DNA from: an uncultured Candidatus Binatia bacterium | Lineage (GTDB): Bacteria; Desulfobacterota; Binatia; Bin18 | Assembly: GCA_965214605.1 (NCBI GenBank) | Contig: OZ243961.1 | Coordinates: forward strand, 2,080,001-2,144,000 | Direction: 5' to 3' | Length of the DNA: 64,000 nt | Shown: one piece after another, positions 4,921 to 23,729 of the stretch | How the letters are laid out: each line of letters opens with the position of its first letter | Position numbering within the stretch: position 1 is the first letter of the stretch | The notes under the pieces: generated by a model | Databases searched by the model: none | Seen by the model: only the letters and a program-made list of their open reading frames with translations | Told to the model about the DNA's origin: nothing | Position numbers and translations under genes: made by a program

Positions 4921-5934
4921 TCAAGCCGACCCGGCCGTCTTGATAATCCGCTTAGCCAGTTGTCTGAAATCACAGTGCGCGTCCCGGACCGCAGCAGCAT
5001 GGCTCCCGATAGCCCCGTCGGCTGGGGTGAGAGAGAAGATAGGCTTCCGGCTCTCCTGTGCCATCGGGACCAGACTGCGGTAATGCTTGACGGTGGCCAG
5101 GCAATGTTGGTCTTCGGCTGGCGAAGCAGGAAACTGCCCGTTTGTCTGATCAAGCAGATTTCTGGCGTACTCTTCCGGCATCCGGTTGATCCATCGGTCA
5201 TACGCTTTGACCGGGCGGCTGAGGCGGACACTGTGCTGTTGCACGATATACCCAAGGGGTTCCATGCGGCCCACAGGCAAAGGGAATGCTGGCGACGACC
5301 AGTTTACTCGTCTCTTCTCCCACTCTTGACGCCAGCGCCTGAGCGTTGGACCGAGGTTGCGCAGGCCCTGCAGGGAAAACAGATCAGCGCCCAGGGGAAC
5401 GATGACATGATTGGTGGCGATGAGGGCGGAGCGATTGATGGCGCCAAGATTGGGGCCAACATCAGCCAGAATGACCGTCGCGTCCATCTCTTTCGCGCCC
5501 AACTGCATCACGGTCCAGAACGAGGTCAGAATCCGAAACGGCCGATACAGATTGGCAGAGCCCAAGGCGTCTGGCCATTCACCAGATAACGTGTCCTCAA
5601 ACCCGGACAGCGCCAGGGCGCCGGGGAGCAGGTTGAGAGACGAGGTGATTTTTTGGAGTGCGGGAGGCAACAAATCCCCGACCTCTAACAGAGGCTTGAC
5701 GCATTCGAAAATGGTTCTGCCAGTGCTTTTACCACACGCCCCCACCCCTCCGTCCCAAAGCGTTTCCAGCTGTTCTTCGTCCAGAAACGCGGCAGACAGA
5801 TTGGCTTGCGGATCCAGGTCGCAGGCGAGCACCCGATGGCCGGTCTGCGACAGCATCCAGGCCAGATTGTAGGCCAGGGAAGTTTTGCCGACGCCACCCT
5901 TGTTGTTGAAGAAGGTCAGTACGGGGATAGTCAT
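4921..5934 (-). CDS. ParA/MinD-superfamily ATPase (AAA_31-like), island-associated subfamily
   Basis: Deviant Walker A NNKGGVGKT, DLDPQANLS, DVGPNLG; start overlaps the upstream stop (ATGA). Confidence 0.88.
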   Translation of the reverse strand: MTIPVLTFFNNKGGVGKTSLAYNLAWMLSQTGHRVLACDLDPQANLSAAFLDEEQLETLWDGGVGACGKSTGRTIFECVKPLLEVGDLLPPALQKITSSLNLLPGALALSGFEDTLSGEWPDALGSANLYRPFRILTSFWTVMQLGAKEMDATVILADVGPNLGAINRSALIATNHVIVPLGADLFSLQGLRNLGPTLRRWRQEWEKRRVNWSSPAFPLPVGRMEPLGYIVQQHSVRLSRPVKAYDRWINRMPEEYARNLLDQTNGQFPASPAEDQHCLATVKHYRSLVPMAQESRKPIFSLTPADGAIGSHAAAVRDAHCDFRQLAKRIIKTAGSA

Positions 5935-7139
5935 GATGAGCGCCCCCGGATGGTCACCTGGACGAAGGTATCCTCAACGATGAATTCCGGCTCGGGATGG
6001 CCATAGTCCTTCAACGCCTTTTTTGCGGCGGGAATGCCGACCCCGAAACGCTGCACATAGCCGAACACTTTCAGAGCCTCCGCCACATTCGGATTCCGAT
6101 AGTCGGTCACACCGGGCTGGCCAAAATTCTCCCGAGTCACGATACCAAAGGCGCCACCCGGGTTCTGGACTTCAATCCGGTCGTTGAACCAGGAGACCCG
6201 TACCGGCGCGTTGGTGGCCTCATAGGCGCGGTGCATCACCGCATTGCGCGTGATCTGCTGAAGCGCCACCAGGGGGTAGGTCGGCTCGCGCCGCTCCCAG
6301 TCCGCCCCGGTCAGGTCGATGCTTGTGCTGATATGGGCCTTCATCTTCTCATCAATGCGCCGCACGATCTCTGAAAGCGTTCCGTCTATGGTTTCCTCGT
6401 CGACGATGGGATCTGACCACGCGGTTCCGTCGATACGCAGGAACTGGATATAGGAATTGGTGATAAAGTCTCGGGGACGTTTGCCGAGCACTAGGAGGCC
6501 CAGCACGGTAGCTGTAGGATTGGCGATGGAAGCGATCATCTTGGTCGTCGCAAGGCGCTGGTTCGTGCTACGCTCGTTCGCTTCGAGGATCTCGGCACTG
6601 AACGCCCGCGGCAGATATTCCTCATCGAACTGACGCAGGCTGAGGTCGGAGACGGCGGTGCCGGGTACGGACTGAATATCGAACGGGATGGCGCCCGACC
6701 GCCGCTTCTCGGTGAGAATGCGTTCCTCATGTTCGGTCGCGATCGCCCGTTGGGGGCCGCCCCGCACGTGAATGGCACCTTTGTAGCGAACAGGCGGGGA
6801 GTCCGATGGCAACACGGTTACCACGGCGACCTCCTTGCCCCGCAGGGTCCGTTTTTCGACCAGCAGGGACGGCGGAGGAACAATGTTGCCATCGGTCTTA
6901 ATATTGCCCAGCTGCGTGAGCAGTTCATCGTCAATGTCAAGGCCACTGGGCTCCCCGTTATCTCTCAGGCCAACGAAGACCACCCCAGCTTGCCCGGAGC
7001 CGGGCAAGTCATTGGCAAATGCACAGACGGCCTCTCGGATCCTGGTTGGCGCTTTACCCTTCAACGTTTCCTTGTACTCAACACGGAAGCTCTCGCCCTG
7101 ATCCATTACCTCTACCAGTTCTCTATCGGTCAGTCGCAT
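5931..7139 (-). CDS. Schlafen/AlbA_2 domain + HATPase_c_4-like (RecG-C-terminal-like) protein
   Basis: GESFRVEYKE, VCAFAND, GVVFVGLRDNG (AlbA_2); ALQQITRNAVMHRAY, RIEVQNPG, YRNP, GYVQRFGVGI (HATPase_c_4). Confidence 0.85.
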   Translation of the reverse strand: MRLTDRELVEVMDQGESFRVEYKETLKGKAPTRIREAVCAFANDLPGSGQAGVVFVGLRDNGEPSGLDIDDELLTQLGNIKTDGNIVPPPSLLVEKRTLRGKEVAVVTVLPSDSPPVRYKGAIHVRGGPQRAIATEHEERILTEKRRSGAIPFDIQSVPGTAVSDLSLRQFDEEYLPRAFSAEILEANERSTNQRLATTKMIASIANPTATVLGLLVLGKRPRDFITNSYIQFLRIDGTAWSDPIVDEETIDGTLSEIVRRIDEKMKAHISTSIDLTGADWERREPTYPLVALQQITRNAVMHRAYEATNAPVRVSWFNDRIEVQNPGGAFGIVTRENFGQPGVTDYRNPNVAEALKVFGYVQRFGVGIPAAKKALKDYGHPEPEFIVEDTFVQVTIRGRSS

Positions 7140-7268
7140 CACCTTAGCTCTTGGTCTTAGGATATGGGGAAAGGGTGGATATTTCCAGCCGTCCACTGGG
7201 CGTCCTACCCTACTCACTGGGCCTCAGTAGGTGAGCCGCCCCCCGGTTTTCCACCTTGGCGCTACCAG

Positions 7269-7874
7269 CTACCCATCCGGCAGCGCCAGATAGCGGTACA
7301 GCGTAGACCGTGAGATATGGAGCGTCTGGCAAATATCCTGCACCTCATGCGTGCGGTCCTGATAGAGTGCCTTGGCCATCTGCACCCGGGGATCGTGCGG
7401 GTCCAGCGACGGCCGCCCGCCTAGGCGTCCGCGCGCCCGCGCCGCGGCCAGCCCGGCCCGCGTCCGTTCCTGAATCAGCCGCCGTTCAAACTGCGCCAGC
7501 GCCGAAAAAATATTAAACACCAGCTCGCCCGACGCCGTCGTCGTATCAATGGCGCCGTCACAGATCGACCGAAAGCCGATGCCCTGCTCCTGCAGCTCCT
7601 CCACCAGCGTCACCAAGTGCGCCATCGACCGCCCCAAACGATCCAGGCGCCAGACCAGCAGCAGGTCGCCGGCCTCCAAGGTCTCCAGACATTTGGTCAA
7701 ACCCGGCCGGTCCGCCTTCGCCCCCGATGCCTTATCCACAAAGATCAGTTCCTCTCGACACCCCTGAGCCTTCAGTGCATCCACCTGCATGCGCAGCTCC
7801 TGCTCCGTTGTACTGACCCGAGCATAGCCAATCGTCCTCCCCGCCTCCCGAGCCCCATTTTTCTTCCGTGTCAT
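7269..7874 (-). CDS. Serine recombinase (resolvase/invertase) with C-terminal HTH
   Basis: [49 protein letters not shown]. Confidence 0.93.
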
Positions 7875-7879
7875 CGCGT

Positions 7880-7990
7880 ATATGATACACAGATTTTTGA
7901 GACGGGTAATATAGAATACATTTCTCCGTCTCGGCTCCCCTACCCGACCCGTCGTGTCGCTGTCTCGCAAAACCTCGTTTGCCAAGACAC
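7880..7990. promoter_or_regulatory. Putative res site / resolvase promoter
   Basis: GTCTC/GAGAC-type half-sites (TTTTTGAGACG; TGTCTCGCAAAACCTCGTTTGCCAAGACAC) directly upstream of the resolvase. Confidence 0.4.
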
Positions 7991-8199
7991 GGGACAGCAG
8001 TCGCGTACTGTGGCGTGCCGCCGTGCATCAAACACACGGCAGCTGCTCGACGCCGCCACGGCCGCCCGGCTCGGCGAGATCGAGCGCGGGGTGACTTGGG
8101 CTGTGGTCAAGATGATGGGCGAGAAGGGAAGGGACCATGAATAGCCCTATCATCGCTGCCGTTGAGGAGCATCTTGTCACCTAGAAGGGATTGAATGTT

Positions 8200-8305
8200 T
8201 ACCAGCTCACTGTATTTTTATTAGAGCTGTATATTTTTTAATAATCAGCTCTTGACATTAATTTTTTTGAGCTGATTTTTTTGCAAAACAGCTCTCATTG
8301 GAGGT
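8200..8305 (+). promoter_or_regulatory. AT-rich promoter with phased CAGCTC/GAGCTG operator-like sites
   Basis: TTGACA at 8252-8257; alternating hexamers at 8203, 8224, 8246, 8269, 8289; GGAGG RBS at 8300. Confidence 0.55.
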
Positions 8306-8311
8306 TGAGAC

Positions 8312-9420
8312 ATGCAAGTGACCTTTCCAGCCATGCGCTCACAAATGGGGGGGCGCAATTACTACGCCACTACGATGGTACTCTCGGAGATACCTCGCCT
8401 CTTCAAGTTCAATGACTGGGAGCGATTCAGCTGCGAGCCCAGCGAGTTCTGAACGAGTCGCGGGTTCCTGTGATCGCAAAGTACATCGTGGACAATGAGG
8501 ACTCCTATTTGTTCTCGTCGATCACGGCGTCTTACTCATCAGACACCATCAAATTCAAGCCGACATCGAAGAACCAGCCCGATATCGGCTACATCGAACT
8601 TGCACTTGAGGAGATGGAATTTGTGATCAACGACGGCCAGTACCGATGTGCGGCTATCGCACAGGCATTAAAGGAAAATCCTACCCTCGCCAAAGATCGC
8701 ATCTCTGTTTTGCTCTTCCCCATGGAGAACATCGACTGGATGCAACAGATGTTCTCAGACCTAAACCGGTTCGCTCAGCGGTCGTCAAAGTCGCTCAACA
8801 TCTTGTACGACCACCGTGACAACCTTGCGGCGCTCACCAATGTCGTTGTGGAAAAAGTCGACGTCTTTCGCGGTCTTGTAGATATGGAGCGTGTGTCTAT
8901 TCCCATCCGCTCGGAGAAACTGTTTGCGCTTTCCACGCTCTACGATGCGAACAAAGAGCTACTGGGCAATAAGATCGATCCGGCTGGCTCAGGTCCGTAC
9001 GAGAAGACATGTGATCGCGCGGTGAACTACTGGAATGCCTTGGCAGAGATCATGACAGACTGGAAGAAGGTTTCTGAGGGTCTTGTTCCCGCCGCTGCGG
9101 TCCGCCAAGAGAAAATCAGTACGCACGCCACCGTGCTCCGTGCGCTCGGTGGAGTTGGTCGTATTCTGAACGAGTACCATCCAGATCAGTGGCGTAAACA
9201 TCTCAAGTACCTTTCTCAGGTAGACTGGCGAAAGAGCGTAGGCGGCAAAGTCAATCCAATGTGGGATGGTGTCTGCATCTCCGCTGGCTCCGTTATTGCA
9301 AACCGCTAGGCTCGCCTTGCCACACTCGAAACCCTGTGTCGCGCAACGCACGTCGCCCAAGACAGCATCCCGGGTATGCGCAAACGCGGCCGGCCTCGTA
9401 AGGCAAACAAGAAGGATTAA
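8312..9420 (+). pseudogene. DndB-like / DGQHR-domain protein (frameshift near 8430, premature TAG at 9307)
   Basis: MQVTFPAMRSQMGGRNYY..., RAQRVLNESRVP, INDGQYR, QQMFSDLN, LYDHRD; the frame continues past TAG to KRGRPRK...KD*. Confidence 0.75.
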
Positions 9421-10282: not shown

Positions 10283-10637
10283 GCAATGGCCCTTATCCGC
10301 AAGAGCGGTCCACCATTCGGTGTGTGGCGCAACAGCTCCTCTGAAGCTCGGCAAACACATCGAATTCTCGATTCCGCTGCTGGCGCTTCAATTGTCGCCA
10401 GCAGCGTCTGCCGGAAAGTGGGCTTGATCCGAAGCTGCTCGTGCAGGCCCCATAACAGCTGTTATGGGCGACGGCGGCGGCCCCTTGAGCAGGTTGGATA
10501 AAAAGAGTTAAGACGCATACGCAAGGCGCCAGCCGAAGAGGGAGGAAGCGAGCGACCGGGAGCAACCGTCCGACGGGCGTAGGGCGTGACGCCCCTGACT
10601 GTCGGCAGCTAGGGTTAGAAGATTTTTCAGCAACCTG

Positions 10638-11255
10638 CTACGCTTGAGCTAGGACAGTCGCGACAAAACGATTCCCATATACACGCCCAGCCTGTGAAGC
10701 CGACAAGTACTGGACCACCAATATTCCGATATAGATGGAAGCGTCTCTCAGCGGCACAAGCCACAATACCAAAAAAGGTATAGCGGCCAACAGAAAAAGA
10801 GCACTGAATGCAGTGTAGTCGCGTGCGAGAAGAAATAGACGGTGCACATCCGCCACCTTCGGCACCTCTTGCACGGTCTTATAGAACTGATACCACTGCC
10901 GGTTTTGTTCTCCTGGATCAACCGGCAGTGGACCCAAACGCTCTACGACCATTTTTGGTTGCACTCGCGAATCCGAATGGAGGATCTCGGAAAAGGCACG
11001 TGTACCCGGTAGCGGATGTCTCCACCGCCAGAACACCAAACGCGCTTTGTTGTCCGCACTCACTAATCCGTTGATGATGTGGACGAGGAATGGCAATGCA
11101 GCTCCACCAACGATCTGTTCCAGATCTGCCCAAAGACTAGTCCAGCCTTGGGCGAGAATATCCTGGACTTTGAGCACGCCAATAAGTGCTACCGCGTTGA
11201 TGCTTAGAAAAATGGTATGGCCGAGCACGTTTTTTTCTTTAAGTGTCTTCGCCAT
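10638..11255 (-). CDS. Four-TM membrane protein, third gene of the MBL/E2-E1-JAB operon
   Basis: Four hydrophobic segments around a soluble loop (FWRWRHPLPGTRAFS...QNRQWYQFYK); starts 14 nt after the E2-E1-JAB stop. Confidence 0.75.
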   Translation of the reverse strand: MAKTLKEKNVLGHTIFLSINAVALIGVLKVQDILAQGWTSLWADLEQIVGGAALPFLVHIINGLVSADNKARLVFWRWRHPLPGTRAFSEILHSDSRVQPKMVVERLGPLPVDPGEQNRQWYQFYKTVQEVPKVADVHRLFLLARDYTAFSALFLLAAIPFLVLWLVPLRDASIYIGILVVQYLSASQAGRVYGNRFVATVLAQA

Positions 11256-11269
11256 GACAAAAGAACCTT

Positions 11270-13579
11270 CTAGTCTCCCTCTGGACGGGCATCTGCACTA
11301 TCAGCAAGAATCGCGTGGAAATCAGCCGGCGCCCATATCAGAAGAACCGATGGTGTGAGACGTGCCAAGGAGACTGCTCTCGCGGTCGCCTGATCTGTCC
11401 CAGAAGGGCCGCTTGCGGAAAGATGGCTGTGCCAGGTTCCCAAGCAGTAGAGTGACCATCCTACGGCCTCCGAGTATGTCTTCATCTGTTGGCGCAATCC
11501 CTTTGTCCCAAGGATAAATCCGCTCGCTGAGCGCTTGCTATCCTCCGGCGCGTCCAACACGTCGACGATATGAGCGACTTGGGATGCCTCCGAAACCCTG
11601 CCCATCAGCACGCCCCCGGTCTCAACCTTTGCCCAGCGCGTGGCCGCCTTCCGAATCTTTGCCACAGCACGTGCATGAACGTGAATACGCCATGATGCAC
11701 TGTTCGTCGTCGGAACAACAGTCACAGGTGGAATCTTATGGGGGCGCCATGTCAGTCCACAACCATCTTCAGACAGCCGGCCGATAAGTACCTCCCCTCC
11801 ATCGGGCGACAACCCTTCACGCTGCCGGGTCAACAAATATTGAGCCATAGCGGCTGCGAACAGGGACAGCTGTCCGTCCGACATCACCATGGTCAGAGAG
11901 CCACAGCCTTGGCCGATGCTTTGCCGTGATACCGTCTCAGCGCCGTCGAAGACGATGGGAGCCACAGCTGAATCCTCTCGCAGGAGCGCATAATATTCAG
12001 CGATAAGATCGGCGGTGTTCGGATTCCGGCCTGGCCCTTCGGTGGTGATCATCCCGACACGGCCACCGGCAAAGAGCGATGTTTCAACGACTCGCGTGGG
12101 CATGAGACGAGTGGCAGCAAGAGCTTCACGAACGGCCAGGGATGCCGTGGCATTCACAACCGCCCAGGAACGCTTTGACCAGGCGCGTTTTGCTAGGGCT
12201 TTGGACGTGAGAACCTTTACAGCATTCTTCATGATCGGCGTCGCCTTCTGGTTCAGTCCTCGTAGTGACTCGCACAGACCCCGAGCCTTTGCATCTGCCC
12301 AGAGAAGTTGCATATCGCCCGGCGCCGGGATAAGCGCATGGCGCGCAGCGTTGTGTGGCATCATTGTCGATTTATCAAGAACGACTTCCGGACCTTGTCC
12401 AGCCCGCGCGAGATGAAGCGCCAGCTTCGAGCCCAGGCTACCGGCCCCGATAAGCGTCCAGCGTGGCCGTTTCGAGGTCGCCGCGCCCCCGCTCATTTGA
12501 GCAAGAAGGGGGCGTGTTATGGCATGACGATGTCCAGCTGGTCGAACCGCCGTTGCACTGCTATTGGGGAACAGATCAGGGAAACAAATGTTCATGATAT
12601 ACGGGCACAACTCGACGGGGCTCTGACTGCCAATAACGTTGAACGGCCGGCGGGCGAGGAGGATTATCGCCAGCGGAAACGGCCCCGCCTGTCGGTACTT
12701 TGACAGGCATTGCTTCAGCCAGTTGAGGCCGGCATTGAGTCCGTTTGCGCAGCCATACTGCGCCGCGCGTTCCTTCAAGTCATCGACACTGCTGACCGTT
12801 TCCGGGAGATAGATGTCACAGATAGCCTGTTCGCCTTTATCCGGCCGTACGACGAGCGCCAACGATTTACCGTGAGAGAGGCACGAGGTTCTGTCTCCCT
12901 GGCCTTCTCCAAAAAGATTTGCTACAGCAGCGCGATTGACCTTGAGCGTATTGACTGAAATCTGGCCGTGGATAAATTCTGAATGGCCGTTACCACCCAT
13001 CTTTAGGTAACGCAGTTCATGGAAACTGTGTCCACCTCTGCGGTTCACCAGCTGACGAAGGCCATCGGCGTCAGCGACGAGATAATCTTTGAGGGAATCG
13101 CGCCGGACAGGTTCCCACCCCTGTTCTGGATCAATGAGCGTGTCGGAAGCGGCACGCTCAAGCCAGACGGCAGTCTGGTCTAGGATGGCGGCCAGTCCTC
13201 CTTCGTGGAGCAATTCGTCCAGGCTTCCATCATAGATACAAGGAACGGGCCGGCCTTCCGTTAAGTATGGCTGTATGTGCGGCAGATTCCGGGGGAAGTC
13301 GGTGCGCAGCGAGAGGCCGGGCGGATACAGGGGGAAGTTGCTTGGGAAGTCAAAACGCACGACCTCTTTTTGCCTGACACCTAAAGGACTTTCCCCGCAT
13401 GGCTTCCACTCGCTCGGTAGATTGACGTTGAAGACCACATCAACGGTGGTAGTCCCATTTGCTTCATGAAGAGAAAGGTCTTCCACATCGGACACGGCGG
13501 GATGCTTGCACATCAAAGCTCGCGCGCGCAGGAGTGCTTTCCTGTGTCCGCGGTCAGAGGCCATCGTTATTTGTCTCAC
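11270..13579 (-). CDS. Prokaryotic E2 - E1(ThiF) - JAB peptidase fusion (Cap2-Cap3-like)
   Basis: E2: FPSNFPLYPP...PHIQP...PCIYDG. E1: IGAGSLGS, HNAARH, VNATAS, GQGCGS. JAB: ETGG, WHSH...PSGTD. GTG start overlaps the MBL stop. Confidence 0.88.
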   Translation of the reverse strand: MRQITMASDRGHRKALLRARALMCKHPAVSDVEDLSLHEANGTTTVDVVFNVNLPSEWKPCGESPLGVRQKEVVRFDFPSNFPLYPPGLSLRTDFPRNLPHIQPYLTEGRPVPCIYDGSLDELLHEGGLAAILDQTAVWLERAASDTLIDPEQGWEPVRRDSLKDYLVADADGLRQLVNRRGGHSFHELRYLKMGGNGHSEFIHGQISVNTLKVNRAAVANLFGEGQGDRTSCLSHGKSLALVVRPDKGEQAICDIYLPETVSSVDDLKERAAQYGCANGLNAGLNWLKQCLSKYRQAGPFPLAIILLARRPFNVIGSQSPVELCPYIMNICFPDLFPNSSATAVRPAGHRHAITRPLLAQMSGGAATSKRPRWTLIGAGSLGSKLALHLARAGQGPEVVLDKSTMMPHNAARHALIPAPGDMQLLWADAKARGLCESLRGLNQKATPIMKNAVKVLTSKALAKRAWSKRSWAVVNATASLAVREALAATRLMPTRVVETSLFAGGRVGMITTEGPGRNPNTADLIAEYYALLREDSAVAPIVFDGAETVSRQSIGQGCGSLTMVMSDGQLSLFAAAMAQYLLTRQREGLSPDGGEVLIGRLSEDGCGLTWRPHKIPPVTVVPTTNSASWRIHVHARAVAKIRKAATRWAKVETGGVLMGRVSEASQVAHIVDVLDAPEDSKRSASGFILGTKGLRQQMKTYSEAVGWSLYCLGTWHSHLSASGPSGTDQATARAVSLARLTPSVLLIWAPADFHAILADSADARPEGD

Positions 13580-14742
13580 CCGTGGGAAAGAGGCTGGCTG
13601 CTTATGATCCCTGGGCCGGAGGCAGCGCTCTTTCTCATAAGTGTCGTCCGTAGGCGTGGTCCATGCCCAGTGACCTCAAACTCCATGGCATCGGGCGACT
13701 CCTCCGACGGGTATTCACCGACACATTTGAACTCCCCGTGCACGCCGTCCACAATTTCTTCATACTCGCGCTTTGCGCCGATGCAAGGCGGATCGTTGTC
13801 GTCATCTTTGATGGGATTGCTGCTGGAGACGATTGTCGCTCCGTCTCGTGCTTGCGAGAGAGCAGCGCGTGCGTCCTCAGACACCTCGGCCTCTCCGTCC
13901 GATTCGCTCCAACTTTCATACGACAGACTGTGCCATGAGCAGTGGTGGGGTGCCTGGAGAATGTCATAGGACAGTCTCTTCGGGTACTCGCGATGACGCT
14001 GCCAGAGCCTCTCCCAGATGGCGACTTCGGTATCCCCTGCGGTAAAAAATATACACTTAGCGGCGATTCCATCCCCGGCTAGGGAAAACCGAAGGATCGT
14101 GCTCGAATTATTTTTCGATAACGTCTCTTCTTCATCGTCGTTATCTGTCTTGGGGAGTGGGCCAAGGAGTCGAGCCGTCATCGACGTATCCTTCTGACCG
14201 TTGATACGCGAGAACTCCTCATCCACACGGATCAGAATCTCTTCGAGATCGTCGGTCTTTCCATCCTCATCTTCGCCAAGAATAAGGATGCGGTCACCGT
14301 CTTCCACGGCTCCATTCATGTCGCGGAATTTCTTGACCCGGCGACGCGCTTCGCTATTGAACGCCTTGGCGTCTTTAGAGAGGGTATGGTGTCGTGAGGC
14401 ACGTCGAAACACCATCGGCGATGACCATAGCTCCCGAATGAAGATTTTATCCGCGTCCGCAGACCATTCGCCTAGTGGCCCGAGGTGAAAATGCTTTTGG
14501 AGCCCGGCGCAGTGGTCTTTATCAGGATGACTGAGAAGCAGGGCATCTACATACAGCCGTCCGTCGTCATCGCGGTCGAGGCGGTCTCGGAGCATTTCAG
14601 CGACATCCGGCGTATCATCGTCCAGATTGTCCGCATCGGCTCGAATGTTGAGGTCTAGCAGGAGCTTGCGGCCGGATTCCGTCTTAATGAGGGTCATATC
14701 GCCGTTGCCCACCGGAAGAAACGCCAGGGTTGCTTTAGCCAT
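13576..14742 (-). CDS. Metallo-beta-lactamase-fold (ComEC-like) hydrolase
   Basis: VGNGD, SHPDKDH, NNSS, AGD, APHHCSWHS motifs; GGAGAGGAG RBS before ATG 14742; ends ...PLSHG. Confidence 0.88.
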   Translation of the reverse strand: MAKATLAFLPVGNGDMTLIKTESGRKLLLDLNIRADADNLDDDTPDVAEMLRDRLDRDDDGRLYVDALLLSHPDKDHCAGLQKHFHLGPLGEWSADADKIFIRELWSSPMVFRRASRHHTLSKDAKAFNSEARRRVKKFRDMNGAVEDGDRILILGEDEDGKTDDLEEILIRVDEEFSRINGQKDTSMTARLLGPLPKTDNDDEEETLSKNNSSTILRFSLAGDGIAAKCIFFTAGDTEVAIWERLWQRHREYPKRLSYDILQAPHHCSWHSLSYESWSESDGEAEVSEDARAALSQARDGATIVSSSNPIKDDDNDPPCIGAKREYEEIVDGVHGEFKCVGEYPSEESPDAMEFEVTGHGPRLRTTLMRKSAASGPGIISSQPLSHG

Positions 14743-14767: not shown

Positions 14768-14856
14768 TGACGGTCCGACCCTTGGCATTGCCGGACTCGC
14801 CATGCTAAGCATGACGGCATGATAGACCATCGTAAATATACCGTCAAGGTTAAAAT
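14768..14856. promoter_or_regulatory. Divergent promoter with TGACGG operator repeats
   Basis: Minus-strand TTGACG(14847-14842)-N17-TATCAT(14824-14819); TGACGG at 14768 and 14812, inverted CCGTCA at 14841. Confidence 0.6.
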
Positions 14857-14868
14857 GGCGATATCGAC

Positions 14869-15225
14869 ATGAAAAAGAACCCATCTACGGCTTTCAAAGA
14901 CCGTCTTCGGACGGCGCGCGATGAATTACGCGGCATGAGCCAAGTCGCACTCGCGAAAGCGACAGGCTTACCGCCAAGTTCGATTGCTCACTTCGAAGGA
15001 GGCACCCGCAAGCCTTCTTTCGACAACCTGCGCAAACTTGCCACCGTCTTGAATGTGACGACGGACTACTTGCTGGGTCGGATCGACGAGCCGGAGGTCG
15101 CCGCCACGGCCGATCCGCTCTACCGCTATGGGGCAAGGCTGACTGACAAAGACCGCTTACTCGCAGCGGAATTCATGCAGATGTTAGAAAAACTTGATCG
15201 CAAAGATCGAGAGACCAGCGAATGA
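14869..15225 (+). CDS. XRE-family HTH regulator (CapH-like)
   Basis: RLRTAR..RGMSQVALAKATGLPPSSIAHFEGGTRKPS...VTTDYLLG. Confidence 0.9.
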   Translation: MKKNPSTAFKDRLRTARDELRGMSQVALAKATGLPPSSIAHFEGGTRKPSFDNLRKLATVLNVTTDYLLGRIDEPEVAATADPLYRYGARLTDKDRLLAAEFMQMLEKLDRKDRETSE

Positions 15226-16118
15226 GCCAGAAGACCGAGCCGCGTGGATTTCTCCTGATGCGGCAGGCCAAGCGCCTTCTGAGGGATGAGGAGTTATTGC
15301 GTCTTCCCGTTGACCTCGAAAGCCTTGCCAGGACCCGCGATATTGTCATTGGACGGATGCCCGGCCCTAACACCGGTGTATCAGGGATGCTCGTTCGCCA
15401 CGGCAATACCTTCGGTATTCTGTATGCCACGGCCATTCCTAACGAAGGCTTCCAGCGTTTCAGTATTGCTCATGAGCTTGGCCACTTCTTTATTGACGGG
15501 CATATCGACCATATCCCGTTCGACGGGGCTCTGCACGAATCATACGCGGATTTCGTCTCCAACGATCCATACGAGCGTGAAGCAGACTATTTTGCTGCCG
15601 GCTTGCTCATGCCGGAAACTCCCGTATGCGGCATCATACGGGAGCAACCGGACGGGCTTTGCACCATTGAAGCCATCCAGCACGCAGCCCGGGCCTCTCT
15701 GACTGCCTCGGCCATCCGATACGTTGGACTGACAGAGAGTGCGACAGCCGTGATCGTTAGCCAGGGCGACAAGATTGACTACTGCTTCATGTCGAACACC
15801 CTGATGAAATCGTTCAGGGACCTCACCTGGCCTCGGAAGGGGGATCCAATCCCATCTGGAACGGTTACAGCGTCGATAGCACGGAAGCCGGATCAGTTGC
15901 GGCGCGACGCTCGGGACTCGGATGAAATCGACGCTATGGAATGGTTCGCCTGTGAACGATCCGTGCAAGCGCTTGAGGAGGTCGTAGGGCTCGGCAGCTA
16001 CGGTCGAGTTCTCACGGTTCTCACCTGTCCTAACCTTTTAGACGATGCCTTTATGGAAGAAGAGGAGGACTCGGACGAAGCCTTGGAAGAAAGCTGGACT
16101 CCTCACTTTCGGCGTTAG
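15222..16118 (+). CDS. ImmA/IrrE-family (M78) metallopeptidase (CapP-like)
   Basis: RFSIAHELGH zinc motif, EREADYFAAGLLMP; ATGA overlap with the HTH gene. Confidence 0.9.
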   Translation: MSQKTEPRGFLLMRQAKRLLRDEELLRLPVDLESLARTRDIVIGRMPGPNTGVSGMLVRHGNTFGILYATAIPNEGFQRFSIAHELGHFFIDGHIDHIPFDGALHESYADFVSNDPYEREADYFAAGLLMPETPVCGIIREQPDGLCTIEAIQHAARASLTASAIRYVGLTESATAVIVSQGDKIDYCFMSNTLMKSFRDLTWPRKGDPIPSGTVTASIARKPDQLRRDARDSDEIDAMEWFACERSVQALEEVVGLGSYGRVLTVLTCPNLLDDAFMEEEEDSDEALEESWTPHFRR

Positions 16119-17085: not shown

Positions 17086-20000
17086 GTGTCTAAAGAATCA
17101 GAAAACCCCGCACATCCCGGCATTTTCATCAAGGAGTATGTCATCCCAGCAGGTATGTCGGTGACGGACGCGGCAAAGAGGTTAGGCGTGGGCAGACCCG
17201 CCTTGTCGAACCTGCTGAACGGCAATTCGTCGCTGTCCCCCAAGATGGCCGTCAGATTAGAAAAATCGTTTGGGACCGACCGCCAGAACCTGCTTGATCG
17301 GCAGGCGGCGTTCGACCTCCATCAGCGGCGCGGGAAAGAGAAGACCGTTGCGGCTCATGCCTACGTTCCGGCTTTTCTGACTATCAAGGCCCGGCAGATA
17401 GAAGAGTGGGCGGAGAGGAACCTTGACGCTCGCCATACGCTGGCGGTGCTGCTGCGCAAGCTGGTTCATTCGACTGGCCACGACCTGCGTCAGGTTGATT
17501 TCCCGGGCTACGACAACGCAGAGCGTCAGGGTTGGGATGGCTGGATCAAGGCTGAGGCGGCCACGCCGTGGATTCCCGAAGGCAAATCCGGCTGGGAGTT
17601 TGGTACGAATAAGAATCCGAAAGGCAAGGCCGAGAGTGATTATGCGGCCCGCCTCACTTCCATTTCTCCGTCCGAGCGAGCCGCATGCACTTTCGTCTTT
17701 GTCACCCCACGCAAGTGGCTGGGCAAGACCGACTGGGCCAGAAGCAAAAACGCAGAAGGCGACTGGAAAGCGGTGAGGGCGTTCGACGCGAGCGACCTTG
17801 AGCAGTGGCTGGAAGAGGCGATTCCCGCGCAGATGTGGCTTGCCGAACAACTCACCATGCCAGTCAGTGGATTCGAGACGCTAGATCGGTCCTGGCGACG
17901 CTGGGAAGAGGCGAGCGAGCCGAAGATGACGCCCACAATATTCGAGCCTTCAATCAGTGCGTACCGCAAGCCTTTCAAAGACTGGCTCGAAAAATCGAGC
18001 GAAAAGCCATTCGTGGTCGCAGCCGATTCCACAGATGAGGCGCTCGCGTTTCTCGCATGTCTGTTCCAGGACTTCGCCACGCGTTCGGAAGACCTTGCTA
18101 CAGTGTTCAAGTCGGCTGAGACGTTGCGGAGCCTGGCAGATTCGTCGTCACCGTTCATTCCAATCGTCTACACCGAAGAAGCCGAACGCGAACTGGCAGT
18201 CCTCTATCGCCGTCTGCACTCCATCATCGTTTGTCCCCGCAATGCTGTTGATTCAAAGCCGGATATTGCTCTTGACCTGTTGAATCACGAGACCTTTGAG
18301 AAGGCCCTTGCCGAGATGGGCATCAAAGATGACGAGGCTGAACGACTTGCGAGAGAGTCGGGCCGCTCTCCGACCATTCTGCGGCGGCGACTCTCGAAGA
18401 TCGACGCTATCAGGAAGCCCCAATGGTCCGGGGATGCGCAGGTCGCCAAGAGCCTGATCCCGATGACCTTGATCGGTGCATGGCACGTCCCGTCCAAGGC
18501 TGATTGCGAGGTTATATCCTGCCTTGCGGCGGGCAGGCCCTATCAGGATACTGAAGAGTGCATTGCCCGTTTGCTCCAATTCGACGACTGTCCTATCTGG
18601 TCCGTCGGAGAGTATCGTGGCGTTGCCTCGAAAATCGACGCCCTCTTCGCGATCCACAAGGACGTGACTGGAGACAATCTCAAGGATTTCTTCTTTCTCG
18701 CTGAATATGTGCTTTCCGAGAGCGACCCGGCGCTTGATTTGCCGGAGGACCAGAGATGGGCCGCAGGACTATATGGGAAGGTGCGTGATTACTCGACCGC
18801 GCTACGTGAGGGCATCTGTGAAACCCTCGTCATCCTCTCTGTCCACGGCAACAATCTGTTCCAAGAGCGCCTCGGGATAGACGTCGAGGTCCGGGTCTCC
18901 TCACTCATCCGGGGGCTCCTGACACCGCTCACCCTCGACAAACTGCTCTCGCATGACAGAGACCTGCCACACTACGCAGAAGCAGCGCCGGACGTGTTCC
19001 TGAGATTGCTTGAGGAAGACCTGCGACAACCTCAGCCAGTCGTACTCGGTCTTTTAAAGCCCGTTGAAAGCAGCTTGTTCATGTCACTGCCACGAACAGG
19101 GCTCTTGTGGGGGCTGGAATGCCTTGCCTGGCAACACCTTGGGCGCGTGAGCTTGATACTCGCGAAGTTGTCGGAAACCGGTATCAACGACAACTGGGCC
19201 AACAAGCCGGTCTCGAGCCTTCATGCGACTTATTGGGCGCGGTTACCGCAAACCGCCGCTTCGCTCGAAGAGCGGATGCAGGCCCTTGAGATGCTGACCA
19301 AGCGGTTTCCGGATATCGGCTGGCGGATTTGTATTGATCAGTTCAAGGTTATTCCAGGGGTAGGACATTATAGCTACCGGCCGCGTTGGCGTAGTGACGC
19401 TTCGGGCGCCGGCCGGTCGATGCCGCCGCAGAAAGAACGCTACGACTTCATACGGAACGCGCTTAATCTAGCACTCGCATGGCCAGAGCACGACCAGAAG
19501 ACGCTTGGCGATCTTGTTGAGCGCCTCCCGGTAACCGAGGAAGGCCGACCTTCGGTTTGGGACTTGATCGATACATGGGCAGCTTCGGAAACCGATGAAA
19601 ATGCCAAAGCCAGCCTTCGTGAGCGGATTCGTCACATCTCGTTCACGCGGCGAGGGCGGCGACTGGAGGACACAACAAAAGCCCGGGCGCGCATGGCGTA
19701 CGAAAAGCTGCAACCGCGCGATCTCAGTGTCCGGCACGCTTGGCTCTTCGCCCAGCACCGGATTGAGCCTTCCGCCGACGAGCTTCAGGATGAGAACTTC
19801 GACTACTCCAAACACGAGGAGAGGATAGGCAAGCTTCGCGGCGCGGCGATGAAAGAGATATGGGCAAAACATGGGTTTAAAGGCGTGGCTGCGCTCCTGT
19901 CTCGCAGCGATGCACCTGATACCGCCGGATATGCTCTGGGGATGAGCATGACAGGTGCGAAGGCACAGGCTGATTTTTTGCGGCAATGCCTCTCCTCTGC

Positions 20001-21150
20001 TCGTGATCTTGAGAGGAAAGGTGATGCCTGCATGCAGGGTTTCCTGATGGCGGTGAGCGACGAAGAGCGGGGTGCGGTGCTCTTAACCTGTGCCGAGGAT
20101 CTCGACACTGATCGGCTCGTGCGGTTGCTCCGGAGTGCTCCGTTTAAACAGGATACGTGGCGTTTGCTCGACCGATACGACACAACAATTCAGGATCGCT
20201 ATTGGCGGGAAGTCCTACCACAATGGAACCGCTACAGTGAAGCGGAATTGATCGAGATCATTGATCGCCTGCTTGAAGCACGGCGCCCCCGCGCCGCTTT
20301 CCATGCCGTCCATTTAGACTGGAGCAGGGTCGAGACCTCACGACTGAAACGGCTCCTTCTCGCCGTTGCCACCGTGGATGCCGAGCCGGCGGATTGGTAT
20401 AGACTGGACGCTTACCGCCTTTCGGAGGCGCTGGATTCGCTCACCGGCCGCTCTGGCGTCAGCCCGGACGAGATGGCGCGGCTTGAGTTCCTGTTCCTAA
20501 CAGCCCTTGAGGACAGCGACCATGGTATCCCCAATCTGGAACAGCAGATTGCCGAGTCTCCGACCCTCTTCGTTCAAGCGCTGGCTTTTGCGTTCAAACG
20601 TGAGGACGACGGGCAGGACCCGCCCGAATGGCGGATCGAAACCCCCGAGCGCCGGACCGAACTGACCTTCGCAGCCGATAGCCTTCTTCGTCGGATCAGA
20701 CGTATCCCGGGTACTGGGCAGGACGGCAAGGTCAATGCTGAAGCGCTGCTGAACTGGATAACAGAGGTGCGGCAGCTCTGCGCTGAACACGGCCGTGTCG
20801 AGGTCGGTGATGAGATGATCGGTGAACTGCTGTCCAAGACTCCTGTCGAAGAAGGCGGCGGCTGGCCGTGCCTTCCGGTCTGCGAGGCGATGGAAAAGAT
20901 TGGTTCCCAGCGGATTGGCGAAGGCTTCAACATCGGTGTTTTTAATGGGCGCGGTGTATATTCGCGCGGAAGGGACGAGGGGGGCGTCCAGGAACGCGAG
21001 CTCGCCACACAGTACCGGGGCTGGGCAAAGCTCCGCGCCTTCGACTTTCCCTATGTCAGCAGTGTCCTTGAAAGTATCGCAGCCAGCTATGACCGCGATG
21101 CGAAGAGGGAAGACACAGAAGAGAGAATCAGAAAGAGGCTGGGACATTGA
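17086..21150 (+). CDS. HigA-type HTH fused to a restriction-endonuclease-like domain, a central region and a long helical C-terminus; putative defence protein
   Basis: HPGIFIKE...SVTDAAKRLGVGRPALSNLLNG...MAVRLEKSFG (HigA); GWDG...PWIPEGKSGWEFGT...KAESDY (PD-(D/E)xK-like); intact 1354-aa ORF. Confidence 0.75.
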   Translation: MSKESENPAHPGIFIKEYVIPAGMSVTDAAKRLGVGRPALSNLLNGNSSLSPKMAVRLEKSFGTDRQNLLDRQAAFDLHQRRGKEKTVAAHAYVPAFLTIKARQIEEWAERNLDARHTLAVLLRKLVHSTGHDLRQVDFPGYDNAERQGWDGWIKAEAATPWIPEGKSGWEFGTNKNPKGKAESDYAARLTSISPSERAACTFVFVTPRKWLGKTDWARSKNAEGDWKAVRAFDASDLEQWLEEAIPAQMWLAEQLTMPVSGFETLDRSWRRWEEASEPKMTPTIFEPSISAYRKPFKDWLEKSSEKPFVVAADSTDEALAFLACLFQDFATRSEDLATVFKSAETLRSLADSSSPFIPIVYTEEAERELAVLYRRLHSIIVCPRNAVDSKPDIALDLLNHETFEKALAEMGIKDDEAERLARESGRSPTILRRRLSKIDAIRKPQWSGDAQVAKSLIPMTLIGAWHVPSKADCEVISCLAAGRPYQDTEECIARLLQFDDCPIWSVGEYRGVASKIDALFAIHKDVTGDNLKDFFFLAEYVLSESDPALDLPEDQRWAAGLYGKVRDYSTALREGICETLVILSVHGNNLFQERLGIDVEVRVSSLIRGLLTPLTLDKLLSHDRDLPHYAEAAPDVFLRLLEEDLRQPQPVVLGLLKPVESSLFMSLPRTGLLWGLECLAWQHLGRVSLILAKLSETGINDNWANKPVSSLHATYWARLPQTAASLEERMQALEMLTKRFPDIGWRICIDQFKVIPGVGHYSYRPRWRSDASGAGRSMPPQKERYDFIRNALNLALAWPEHDQKTLGDLVERLPVTEEGRPSVWDLIDTWAASETDENAKASLRERIRHISFTRRGRRLEDTTKARARMAYEKLQPRDLSVRHAWLFAQHRIEPSADELQDENFDYSKHEERIGKLRGAAMKEIWAKHGFKGVAALLSRSDAPDTAGYALGMSMTGAKAQADFLRQCLSSARDLERKGDACMQGFLMAVSDEERGAVLLTCAEDLDTDRLVRLLRSAPFKQDTWRLLDRYDTTIQDRYWREVLPQWNRYSEAELIEIIDRLLEARRPRAAFHAVHLDWSRVETSRLKRLLLAVATVDAEPADWYRLDAYRLSEALDSLTGRSGVSPDEMARLEFLFLTALEDSDHGIPNLEQQIAESPTLFVQALAFAFKREDDGQDPPEWRIETPERRTELTFAADSLLRRIRRIPGTGQDGKVNAEALLNWITEVRQLCAEHGRVEVGDEMIGELLSKTPVEEGGGWPCLPVCEAMEKIGSQRIGEGFNIGVFNGRGVYSRGRDEGGVQERELATQYRGWAKLRAFDFPYVSSVLESIAASYDRDAKREDTEERIRKRLGH

Positions 21151-21488: not shown

Positions 21489-22280
21489 ATGCAAGCAAAA
21501 CATCGTAGCATGGAACAGGTAAACATCCCCACAGTTGGGGCTCACGATGATAAGAGTCTCAAACGCTGCAAGACAACGCGAAAAGACGCGGTTAAAATAT
21601 TGCCGGCGACCGATGTTCTGGATACCCTCTCACATGCTCCGAAGACTGTGAAAGCCGTTATCCTTGATCCATGGTATAACAGGGGTGTCGGTGGGCAGAG
21701 AGAAGACTACAACGAATGGCTCACGACAGTTATTCAGGCAGCGTGCCGGGTTGCCGGGCATGTTTTTGTATGGGGATTTCCTGAGATACTGGCCTATCAG
21801 ATTGCCTCTATCCCCACCCATTGCAAGCTTGTGGCGTGGCTGACGTGGTATTATAAGAATTGTCCCTCCGTCATCCGTGGGTGGCGCTCCGCCCAAAACG
21901 CGTGTCTCCATATTGCGACAGATGAGGCACCGACCTATCCCGAGCATTTTTTGAGTCTAGCTCAGTTCCAGAAATGGAAAGAGGGGAAGATGCGTTTCAT
22001 CCCAGGTCCGCCCTCTGTCCTTGAGGCTCCCTTAAACATAGGATTTGTCGGAAAAGACGAGCAAACCGAACATCCAGCGCAGAAACCGCTCTCGGTCATA
22101 GAGCCACTGATTTTGATGTCTACACAAGAGAACGATGTCGTGCTTGATCCTATGTGCGGTTCAGGAACAACAGGAGAAGCTTGTCTCCGATTGAATAGGC
22201 GGGCGGTCTTGTGTGACCATGATCTCAAATGGGTGGCGCTTACACGGAACCGTATAAAAGAGTGCCATCATCCCGCGTAG
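21489..22280 (+). CDS. Orphan beta-class N6/N4 DNA methyltransferase
   Basis: ILDPWY (motif IV variant) precedes HPAQKP and VVLDPMCGSGTT (motif I); start uncertain. Confidence 0.85.
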   Translation: MQAKHRSMEQVNIPTVGAHDDKSLKRCKTTRKDAVKILPATDVLDTLSHAPKTVKAVILDPWYNRGVGGQREDYNEWLTTVIQAACRVAGHVFVWGFPEILAYQIASIPTHCKLVAWLTWYYKNCPSVIRGWRSAQNACLHIATDEAPTYPEHFLSLAQFQKWKEGKMRFIPGPPSVLEAPLNIGFVGKDEQTEHPAQKPLSVIEPLILMSTQENDVVLDPMCGSGTTGEACLRLNRRAVLCDHDLKWVALTRNRIKECHHPA

Positions 22281-22318: not shown

Positions 22319-22546
22319 CTAGTGAGATTTGCAGGCTTCCTGCCAGTTGCCGACAGAAGGGCGAAGGGTCGGTCCACCATCTGTCTCCTCAACCGACCAC
22401 TCAGTTGGACCGAGCGGCGTCCTGATCTTTGAGCCGCAGCCACAGGCGCACAGGTGTGCTACGGCGCCGAATTGTTCCGAAACGTAGAGTACGCCAGGTT
22501 CCAGGTCCTTCGGCATGTAGTGGACCCGCTGCAATCTAATCTTCAC
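22319..22546 (-). pseudogene. DUF6527-like Cys/His protein, C-terminally truncated
   Basis: LEPGVLYVS...HLCACGCG..I.TPL...W...LRPSVGNW..CKSH then TAG. Confidence 0.6.
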
Positions 22547-23729
22547 TAAGCTCGAAGTCCCCTACAGTCTTAAGGTCGCTCACTTCCAAGAGGAGATGGC
22601 AGTAGGGAACCTCCTCAAAATAGAAGCCGCGGAGCGGCTTGAACCTGATAACTGCCAAGCATGTGTTGAGAGCGTTGAGTTCACTGATTTGGATGTTCGT
22701 CCGATATTCATCGTCCGGGCTGTCCACCAGTGGGGCCAATTTTTTGTCCCGAATTACCTGTCCATGTTCGGCAGAATGATACGTCGTGCGCAACATGCCA
22801 TTGAGTGGACCTCTCTTGCGGTTTAAGTCCATGCCTGCATCAATGAACGGAATACCCTTTGAGATGAGCAAATCAAAGATGCCTGCTCGGGCCACACCTT
22901 TATCAACACAGACAAATGCAAAGGTCACACCGTCCAAATCGTTAAGGCATGAAGCATCGAGAAAAGTGCGACTCGTGGAAAGGCCCGTGCGGAAGTTCTC
23001 ATAGCGGCCGCGATAGACTTGCGCCTTAGGCTGGCCGAGTTCAGTTTTCTCTAGCCGGCCCGGGGAGCGAAAGGCGTTGCGGACGCAGAACAAATCTCGG
23101 TCGAATGCCCGGATTTCACGGACAGGGGTCTTTACAATGAAGTCTAGGACATATGCCCCTGTGCCGCCTAAGCCTGTCACAGCGATCACATCGTCTTTGA
23201 GCTTTGAAGCAAGATCAGTGATCTCTGCCCCACTCGTTAGTGTGTCGTGAAACTTGAAAACTGAATCAGACGGAATGTCCCCCACGAGGCGAAATGTGTA
23301 GGGGCTGACGCCATGCAATTCTGTCGCTGGCCCCGAGATTATCGCGACATAGCTTTCGATTTTATCGAAAAAATCCGAGAACTTTCCAGCGGGCTCTGGT
23401 TTGTTAGCAAATGAGCGCTCTCCGATTACGTCTTTACTAGCCTCACTCAGCGCAATCTGAGCAGGCCCGCCACCCAGATTTGGGATCGGCTTCCGATCCA
23501 ACCCGTGCGGCACAGACCCGGCGAAGAAGACTTGGGGGGCCGTCTGCCTGACGTGCTCCTGGTCTCTGAATTCAACCTTCGCAACGATTGCGCCGAACCG
23601 CAGCTGGTTTTCACTGTCCAGATACGGAATGTCCCGGACAACCAGGTGATTGCTGTCGAAGGCAACTGCGTAACCCCTTTTGACTCAACGCTGGAGGTCG
23701 TCGTTATGATTGACCAGTTTTTGTAACAC
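22536..23729 (-). pseudogene. DUF6791-like + ThiF/E1 adenylyltransferase with premature stop
   Basis: GTG at 23729, in-frame TGA at codon 15 (23685-23687), then VRDIPYLD..., GLGGTGAYVLD, NAFRSPG, FVCVD, NIQISELNALN. Confidence 0.75.

Follow-up and report, generated by a model that had tools for sequence, protein, structure and literature searches.

A 6A-MBL operon whose MBL-fold enzyme is the probable conjugation substrate of a fused E2-E1-JAB protein

A copy of the 6A-MBL system

The window, which is the whole 64,000-nt stretch of DNA that was analyzed, contains an operon on the minus strand and a divergent pair of control genes, with intergenic gaps of 11, 14 and 126 nt:

10638..11255, minus strand: 4TM membrane protein, 205 aa, of an unnamed family recognized by its motif and MBL-fold hydrolase neighbors
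11270..13564, minus strand: E2-linker-E1-JAB fusion, 764 aa (6A-MBL cap2_3; NCBIfam NF058523, Pfam)
13576..14742, minus strand: 6A-MBL enzyme, 388 aa (NCBIfam NF058524)
13579..13650, minus strand: C-terminal tail of the MBL, residues 365-388, with a P-L-x-H-G end (model and homolog alignment)
14797..14861, no strand: intergenic inverted repeat with 24-nt arms, 79% complementary, a candidate CapH operator
14869..15225, plus strand: CapH-type HTH repressor, divergent from the operon (PADLOC capH, E 5.8e-25)
15222..16118, plus strand: CapP-type metallopeptidase (PADLOC capP, E 3.2e-61; Pfam Peptidase_M78)

A sigma-70-like site (14847-14819, minus strand) lies under the inverted repeat, in an intergenic region where promoter-like matches are no more frequent than in shuffled sequences.

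The MBL passed its NCBIfam model, NF058524, with 429.8 bits (cut-off 220), and the adjoining fusion, a single polypeptide in the order E2, E1 and JAB by Pfam and NCBIfam, passed the curated equivalog NF058523 with 598 bits (cut-off 320). This is the architecture of operon type 6a, an MBL followed by an E2-E1-JAB triple fusion, in Table 1 of Iyer, Burroughs and Aravind 2006 (PMC1779556), here extended by a gene for the 205-aa membrane protein and by CapH+CapP control. Judged from its sequence, the locus is thus a typical example of the anti-phage system named 6A-MBL; according to a review, anti-phage activity has been reported for the family. The CD-NTase that would mark type II CBASS was not found among the operon proteins in Pfam, PADLOC and NCBIfam scans.

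In the fusion, Pfam placed Prok-E2_A at residues 38-168, ThiF at 366-497 (under its cut-off) and Prok-JAB at 632-745. The expected sites are present: Cys109 of the E2, the GxGxxG motif (373-378), D397, R408 and crossover-type Cys554 of the E1, and E648, H712, H714, S721 and D724 of the JAB. Since C109, G373/G378, D397, R408, C554, E648, H712, H714 and D724 are invariant in 105 sequences, the fusion has the intact E2, E1 and JAB centers of a 6A-MBL protein. Its closest solved relatives are Cap2 structures 7tsq/7to3, with sequence similarity limited to the E1 nucleotide-binding region.

The MBL reading frame (14742-13576, minus strand) encodes 388 aa and ends in ...RKSAASGPGIISSQPLSHG before the stop codon. 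Pfam has no family for the protein, and its AlphaFold2 model (mean pLDDT 93) shows a ComEC-like metallo-beta-lactamase fold, the top structural match being the ComEC MBL domain 9ic4 (E 1.3e-13). The ComEC domain is also the best sequence match and shares the HxDxDH motif with the MBL; metal-site residues H72, D74, D76, H77, D237, H266 and H267 are invariant or nearly so in the homolog alignment. We read the MBL as a ComEC-like metal-dependent phosphodiesterase, probably a nuclease, although it shares only 13% identity with ComEC and lacks membrane and competence domains, and a terminal Gly is not conserved in proteins of ComEC length.

A conserved C-terminal His-Gly on a flexible tail

The earlier note on this DNA had marked 13576..13660, approximately residues 361-388 and the stop codon, as a flexible, low-complexity tail with a terminal Gly. 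The C-terminus reads ...SGPGIISSQPLSHG. Residues 365-388 have no secondary structure in the AlphaFold2 model and the last two ten-residue blocks have pLDDT values of 50 and 59, compared with at least 90 for most of the core, so the tail is predicted to be flexible, as the note had said. 'Low-complexity' was an overstatement, with the last 20 residues ranking 120th of 369 windows by entropy. The NCBIfam model does not include the tail, because its match spans residues 8-361.

Taken alone, the terminal Gly is weak evidence: among 1791 long ORFs of the genome, 10.7% end in G, and 0.22% in HG. The note had suggested checking homolog C-termini for a conserved Gly or Ala, and in the alignment HG is present in all 120 close homologs listed (query included), as the very last residues in 112 and followed by 1-4 further residues in the other eight. 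By this comparison, the conservation is far above chance expectation. Of 150 distant representatives listed, 84 full-length proteins were kept and 66 dropped (fragments, fusions, motifs absent). By tail classes that were defined after the tails had been seen, 42 of the 84 end in xG and 14 in YA/SA, 25 have HG/YG/WG/RAG followed by 1-9 residues (background for a motif with a short extension, 154/4481 internal windows, 3.4%), and three have no tail motif. The 25 would need trimming, because residues follow their Gly. C-terminal extensions as a purpose-built pro-form were rejected: in seven of ten cases the extension results from an ATGA overlap with the gene that follows, and five of these seven loci are near-identical. 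Other MBL-fold proteins do not have the motif: second MBLs in the loci end in G in 2/12 cases and in HG in 0/12, and complete weak MBL-fold matches, mostly ComEC-length, end in G in 3/21 and never in HG. In two MBLs an AGS_C domain replaces the tail; a plasmid search returned no full-length MBL-AGS_C fusion.

The tail upstream of HG varies while the terminal HG stays conserved. At 36 HG loci, the His codon is CAC in 19 and CAT in 17, and the Gly codon GGC in 16, GGG in 10, GGT in 6 and GGA in 4. Because both vary synonymously, HG is conserved at the protein level, which rules out a DNA-level explanation. Selection for the MBL fold, for instance if His387 were a metal ligand with an autoinhibitory role, or for translational coupling to the next gene could also keep a His-Gly end, and would fit the close gene spacing and a His387 that is invariant in the HG class (sequences picked for that class). 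This account is very improbable, since Tyr, Phe, Trp or Ala replace His in other classes, the tail is undocked in the model, and codons, stop codons and spacing vary. Gly388 is instead the predicted residue for conjugation, and SAASGPGIISSQPLSHG the predicted tail remnant on lysines after trypsin.

As the earlier note had stated, the operon has no gene for a ubiquitin-like protein, and its gaps leave no room for one. Four small downstream ORFs matched no Pfam family over the cut-off, and 85 related loci showed no recurrent family of small Gly-ending ORFs beyond duplicate pairs. A 90-aa Gly-ending ORF (10293-10565) was rejected as a candidate, having neither a family over the cut-off nor a match in the 85 loci. 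The locus thus differs from Bil and Bub operons, which share E1, E2 and JAB enzymes with it and encode a true beta-grasp ubiquitin-like protein. Bub operons are frequently under CapH+CapP control, and Bub functions without catalytic cysteines (2024 preprint), a lack that does not apply here. A Bub-type remnant lies 9 kb from the operon.

Alternatively, the fusion might use a ubiquitin-like protein encoded elsewhere, such as a housekeeping ThiS/MoaD, the MBL tail being a docking or structural element. Iyer et al. 2006 (PMC1779556) raised the use of available ThiS/MoaD, and the genome has seven ThiS-family matches outside the window; it also has the Bub-type remnant. Prok_Ub had no match in the genome; nor did Multi_ubiq, in a search whose positive control was likewise silent. 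We consider an external modifier quite improbable, because it leaves unexplained a conserved last residue that is only ever Gly or Ala and shifts with the E1 clade.

Tails follow the E1 and resemble those of CD-NTases

A disordered tail, a conserved terminal Gly/Ala and no ubiquitin-like gene are the features of a Cap2-type cargo, and the locus shares them with type II CBASS, together with a related E1, the cysteines of both E2 and E1, and the JAB motif. It departs from type II CBASS in several respects: an MBL-fold hydrolase takes the place of the nucleotide cyclase as cargo, the JAB is part of a fusion, the E2 belongs to family A, and no second-messenger effector is known. Among CBASS operons, only those with Cap2/Cap3 conserve the terminal G/A, and conjugation depends on it.

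We compared tail classes with phylogeny using quick trees, one of which, that of the E1, was flagged for long branches, and with small non-HG classes (14/51 rows). Tail class requires three changes on the E1 tree, which is the minimum, and seven on the MBL-core tree, and AU tests rejected monophyly of the GFA-tail MBL cores and likewise of the HG-tail cores. On these trees, the tail motif tracks the clade of the partner E1, not the MBL core. Some coupling is expected, because both are adjacent DNA that can move as one cassette.

The same tails occur outside the MBL family. GFA- and RYA-tail MBLs precede the Cap2 of PADLOC CBASS families PDLC00855 and PDLC00836, and CD-NTases adjoining the matching Cap2 genes have tails similar to those of the related MBLs, with GFA and RYA common to both. 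One GFA-type CD-NTase tail was identical to eight GFA MBL tails at a mean of 11.5/25 positions, and to 49 HG MBL tails at a mean of 1.4/25 in a comparison of the same type. One related MBL tail class also matches KPGGFA, a remnant of a Bacillus cyclase whose conjugation is proven. The HG class was not seen on any CD-NTase in the loci examined.

A broader reading, which we offer tentatively and think unlikely in its full extent, would make tail and E1 a portable cassette with four or more address codes (HG, RAG, GFA, RYA), grafted repeatedly onto unrelated enzymes, both CD-NTases and MBL hydrolases. The MBL would then occupy the CD-NTase slot, gated by ligation, and the 4TM protein would be a dedicated third component, a membrane anchor or killing effector, outside the two-gene 6A-MBL definition.

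A proposed ligation cycle and its acceptor

At the sequence level, conservation, the catalytic residues, tail-E1 coupling and the CD-NTase tails strongly support the claim that the C-terminal Gly of the MBL is the E1 substrate and that the link is undone by the fused JAB. We put a probability of about 85% on the reading of the locus as a 6A-MBL anti-phage operon whose fusion protein activates Gly388 and ligates the whole MBL to an amine acceptor, the JAB cutting the link. The analysis shows the genes and the families they belong to, their conservation, that the catalytic residues are intact and that tail and E1 are coupled; all of the chemistry, the acceptor, the substrate of the MBL and the way in which regulation runs are inferred. 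CapP would be activated by DNA damage or by single-stranded phage DNA, and would cleave CapH and turn the operon on. The E1 would adenylate Gly388, and the tail thioester would pass from Cys554 to Cys109 of the E2. The MBL tail would then be joined by an amide to lysines of host or phage proteins, and the fused JAB would cut the MBL-acceptor link. The last 5-25 residues of the MBL may form a portable tag by which an E1 of the matching clade recognizes it.

The earlier note had taken the enzyme itself for the modifier. Ligation of the whole enzyme fits our evidence; as to a tag that marks its target, the analogy with CBASS favors reading the MBL as regulated cargo, and ligation most likely controls the MBL, by priming or localizing it, rather than marking the acceptor. 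The idea that the enzyme itself is conjugated is not new: the system is named, and a 2024 preprint by Ye et al. describes 'MBL pathways' that conjugate their own enzyme (PMC11601596). The Ledvina preprint does not mention 'MBL' or 'lactamase', and according to a 2025 review, no system other than Cap2 is known to activate a protein without a beta-grasp fold. Direct proof of MBL conjugation was not found in the accessible literature. The locus is therefore one more example, to which are added comparative support and, as a candidate accessory component, the membrane protein. Experimental confirmation would make it a clear example of a full-size hydrolase under ubiquitin-style ligation, carrying the CBASS principle to another fold. 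The four tail-E1 pairs offer a ready set of orthogonal ligation tags.

The acceptor is the point on which a second account departs, and the only one. It is possible, if clearly less probable than lysines of other proteins, that the tail stops at the thioester, or joins the fusion or other MBLs (self-conjugation, chains) or a non-protein amine such as a lipid. Jenson et al. left a lipid acceptor open, cGAS was found on Cap2's own cysteines and lysines, Cap2 resembles ATG7, and no third gene is constant among the related loci. Against this, conjugation in the CBASS systems tested went mainly to protein lysines (130 sites and PspA).

The earlier note had also named the 4TM protein as a ligation target, and a dedicated acceptor would tether the MBL to the membrane via Lys70 until the JAB freed it. 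The protein had no Pfam, PADLOC or NCBIfam hit and only unnamed clusters in ESM Atlas; its family has the motif K70-A-R-L-V-F-W-R-W..L-P-G.R-A-F-S and is often accompanied by MBL-fold hydrolases. Lys70 is kept in 49/50 homologs, the family adjoins MBL and E1/JAB genes in 12 of the 15 plasmid records examined (of 19) and co-occurs with all four tail classes, and PspA is a precedent for a membrane-associated acceptor. Nevertheless, we regard this role as improbable and, as an obligatory one, rejected it: the gene is present in just 17/85 related MBL loci, and K70 is kept in three copies without annotated E1/JAB genes nearby, one of which adjoins a tail-less MBL. The persistence of the conserved Lys in loci without an E1 makes the 4TM protein a weak candidate. 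Elsewhere among the related loci, a different membrane protein, a second MBL or a patatin is present.

The operon and its predicted machinery

Three genes lie in a row on the minus strand with spacers of 11 and 14 nt, and capH and capP diverge from this row (PADLOC E 5.8e-25 and 3.2e-61).

The three-gene row and the adjoining repeat (window positions)
14742-13576, minus strand: MBL enzyme, 388 aa; NCBIfam 6A-MBL_enzyme, 429.8 bits (cut-off 220)
13564-11270, minus strand: E2-E1-JAB fusion, 764 aa; NCBIfam 6A-MBL_cap2_3, 598 bits (cut-off 320)
11255-10638, minus strand: membrane protein (4TM), 205 aa; third gene in the row
14797-14861: spacer of the MBL and capH genes; inverted repeat, arms of 24 nt, candidate operator for CapH

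Both the 6A-MBL system and the idea of conjugation through the tail are already known. The Nature version of Ledvina 2023 reportedly discusses MBL operons. The operon type matches row 6a of Iyer, Burroughs and Aravind 2006 (PMC1779556, in excerpt), and Ye et al. 2024 (PMC11601596) state that in MBL pathways the enzyme itself is what gets conjugated; excerpts of a 2026 review name 6A-MBL as an anti-phage component, and those of a 2025 preprint list it among jumbo-phage defence systems. No direct experiment on an MBL tail was found in these excerpts or those of PMC13373217, PMC10097602, PMC12355090, PMC10419184 or the Ledvina and Krüger preprints; one may exist, as may tail alignments, for example in Ledvina 2023 (Nature), van den Berg 2024 or supplements. 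The distribution of the MBL family is patchy: among 401 genomes from the phylum, 6 pass the cut-off, the present one counted. As the earlier note had stated for the operon itself, no Ubl (ubiquitin-like protein) gene was found within it, nor was one found beside it; elsewhere in the genome we found seven ThiS-family matches, and Prok_Ub matched nowhere in it.

The fusion has the Pfam order Prok-E2_A, ThiF, Prok-JAB. Across 105 aligned fusions, C109 of the E2, the E1 nucleotide loop, D397, R408 and C554 are invariant, and so are the JAB residues E648, H712, H714 and D724. Its nearest solved structures are Cap2, with single-sequence similarity confined to the E1 nucleotide-binding stretch. The MBL core is nearest to the ComEC MBL domain (9ic4, E 1.3e-13, 13% identity) and has invariant H72, D76, H77, D237, H266 and H267; this likeness and these residues suggest a metal-dependent phosphodiesterase, and probably a nuclease.

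The MBL's C-terminal tail

The MBL ends in ...RKSAASGPGIISSQPLSHG, which confirms the terminal Gly. In an AlphaFold2 model built with 95 sequences (mean pLDDT 93), secondary structure is absent beyond residue 364 and the last two blocks have pLDDT 50-59. The description of this tail as low-complexity did not hold, its entropy ranking 120 of 369. Among 1791 long ORFs of the genome, 10.7% end in Gly and 0.22% in HG. Conservation of a terminal G/A, which the earlier note had proposed to check, was borne out: the 120 close homologs listed, the best of 3119 matches, end in HG in 112 cases and in HG plus 1-4 residues in the other eight. From 150 distant representatives listed out of 1020 matches, we retained the 84 that are full-length with both metal motifs; 56 of them end in xG (42) or YA/SA (14), 25 carry the motif plus 1-9 residues (background rate for this class 3.4%), and three have none. 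Complete MBLs occur in 82 of 85 related loci, with 68 distinct tails (49 HG, 5 RAG, 8 GFA, 4 RYA and 2 other), and the His and Gly codons at the tail end vary freely. As controls, G is the last residue in 2 of 12 second MBLs of these loci and, among 21 complete weak matches (most of them of ComEC length), in 3, and no member of either group ends in HG; in the same comparison all six matches above the cut-off finish in HG or WG. Residues after the tail Gly are mostly due to gene overlap (ATGA junction in 7 of 10 loci), and such extensions would need trimming, a predicted task of the JAB.

Two 6A-MBL-like relatives (P0125, P0165) have an AGS_C domain where the Gly tail would be. In two others (P0148, P0159) a partial MBL is continuous with an E2(-E1-JAB) protein in one ORF, which may reflect deletions or assembly errors.

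Tail class, E1 clade and the predicted reaction

A partner ORF of at least 450 aa is present in 60 loci, and trees were built from 50 non-redundant loci plus the window (51 rows). Tail class requires three changes on the E1 tree, as few as there can be, and seven on the tree of MBL cores trimmed of their tails; these are quick trees, and the E1 tree carries a warning of long branches meeting. AU tests, picked after the MBL-core tree result, covered 35 rows of the 51, with 16 HG rows omitted that were mostly near others; they reject a single clade for the GFA cores (p 7e-9) and the HG cores (p 2e-99). Part of this coupling is explained by joint transfer, because tail and E1 gene adjoin; what speaks for function is that the last residues are kept.

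The GFA and RYA MBLs are followed by separate Cap2-like and Cap3-like genes, with Cap2 in the PADLOC CBASS families PDLC00855 and PDLC00836, and despite these CBASS-type partners the 6A-MBL model still gives them more than 400 bits. Beside the closest Cap2 homolog (plasmid, one locus fetched), a CD-NTase ends in the GFA-type tail ...FPAHPVTPNKSAGFA, whose mean identity over 25 positions is 11.5 with the 8 GFA MBL tails and 1.4 with the 49 HG tails. At the four RYA-type plasmid loci, the CD-NTases next to the closest Cap2 homologs likewise have tails resembling those of the MBLs (...GGRHA, ...GGRYG, ...ERYA, and ...GGRYA plus five residues). Between CD-NTase and MBL cores, 20 pairs gave only one weak match (62 columns, E 0.001). 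According to an excerpt of the Krüger et al. preprint, KPGGFA is the remnant ligated to PspA lysines, so relatives of the window MBL bear a tail of a class proven as a Cap2 substrate. In seven loci with GFA-tail MBLs (L027, L030, L046, L051, L070, L072, L083), the Cap2-like partner keeps the E2 Cys but lacks one where the E1 catalytic residue aligns, possibly an alignment effect.

Tail conservation, intact machinery and tail-E1 coupling thus make the earlier proposal, that the MBL tail marks a conjugated modifier, well supported at the level of sequence. In the reading we favour (probability about 0.85), the fusion would adenylate Gly388, the tail would be handed through Cys554 and Cys109, the entire MBL would be ligated to an amine, and the JAB would undo this link and trim extensions. 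By analogy with CBASS, ligation may regulate the MBL enzyme: it primes cGAS in the systems of Ledvina (preprint) and Jenson (PMC10097602), both in excerpt, and part of the Krüger preprint proposes that it stores and inhibits the cyclase. We lean towards priming or localising of the MBL at roughly even odds. Control by CapH and CapP, if it operates as in the excerpted PMC13373217, would tie operon expression to DNA damage.

The 4TM protein and the defence island

The earlier note had also offered 4TM lysines as a target, which the distribution of the family speaks against. It occurs in only 17 of the 85 loci, across all four tail classes and at varied positions, and K70 is conserved in 49 of 50 homologs. 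Among 19 plasmid records with the family, 15 were examined; 4TM adjoins fusion matches in seven by coordinates, and in eight fetched records it stands beside MBL and E1/JAB genes in five (two broken) and not in three. These three copies all keep the lysine, one of them after a different, tail-less MBL. Since K70 is kept without neighbouring E1/JAB genes, 4TM seems to accompany MBL hydrolases and not to serve as an E1 substrate. At other loci the place of 4TM is taken by a different membrane protein, by an MBL of the PDC-M48 type or by a patatin. The boldest reading, a portable tail-E1 cassette with a dedicated 4TM component, seems unlikely.

The family, which has no name, shows near-invariant K-A-R-L-V-F-W-R-W..L-P-G.R-A-F-S, D.R, N..W-Y and R-D motifs and is met repeatedly next to defence genes of the MBL fold, whether an E1 is present or not. 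A second, tail-less MBL (PADLOC PDC-M48B type) often lies 3' of the fusion gene (L003:9511-10572, L008:8309-9415, L052:5457-6527, L073:8462-9325). Locus L091 (CP155473.1) contains, in row, a WYL regulator, an MBL-like protein ending ...TQG, an E2-E1-JAB fusion and a patatin phospholipase, which we read as a CBASS-like effector within an MBL operon.

Other genes of the island (window positions)
22319-23665, minus strand: Bub-like operon remnant with no Ubl gene seen; a 325-aa DUF6791-ThiF (E2-E1-like) ORF, its upstream part absent or in a different frame, then a 75-aa DUF6527 ORF
17086-21150, plus strand: protein of 1354 aa; HigA-type HTH domain at the N-terminus, large remainder without Pfam or PADLOC match
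4921-9309 and 21489-22280: ParA-like ATPase, Schlafen/AlbA_2-HATPase protein, DndB-like protein and N6/N4 DNA methylase
7269-7985: recombinase-like ORF among these neighbours
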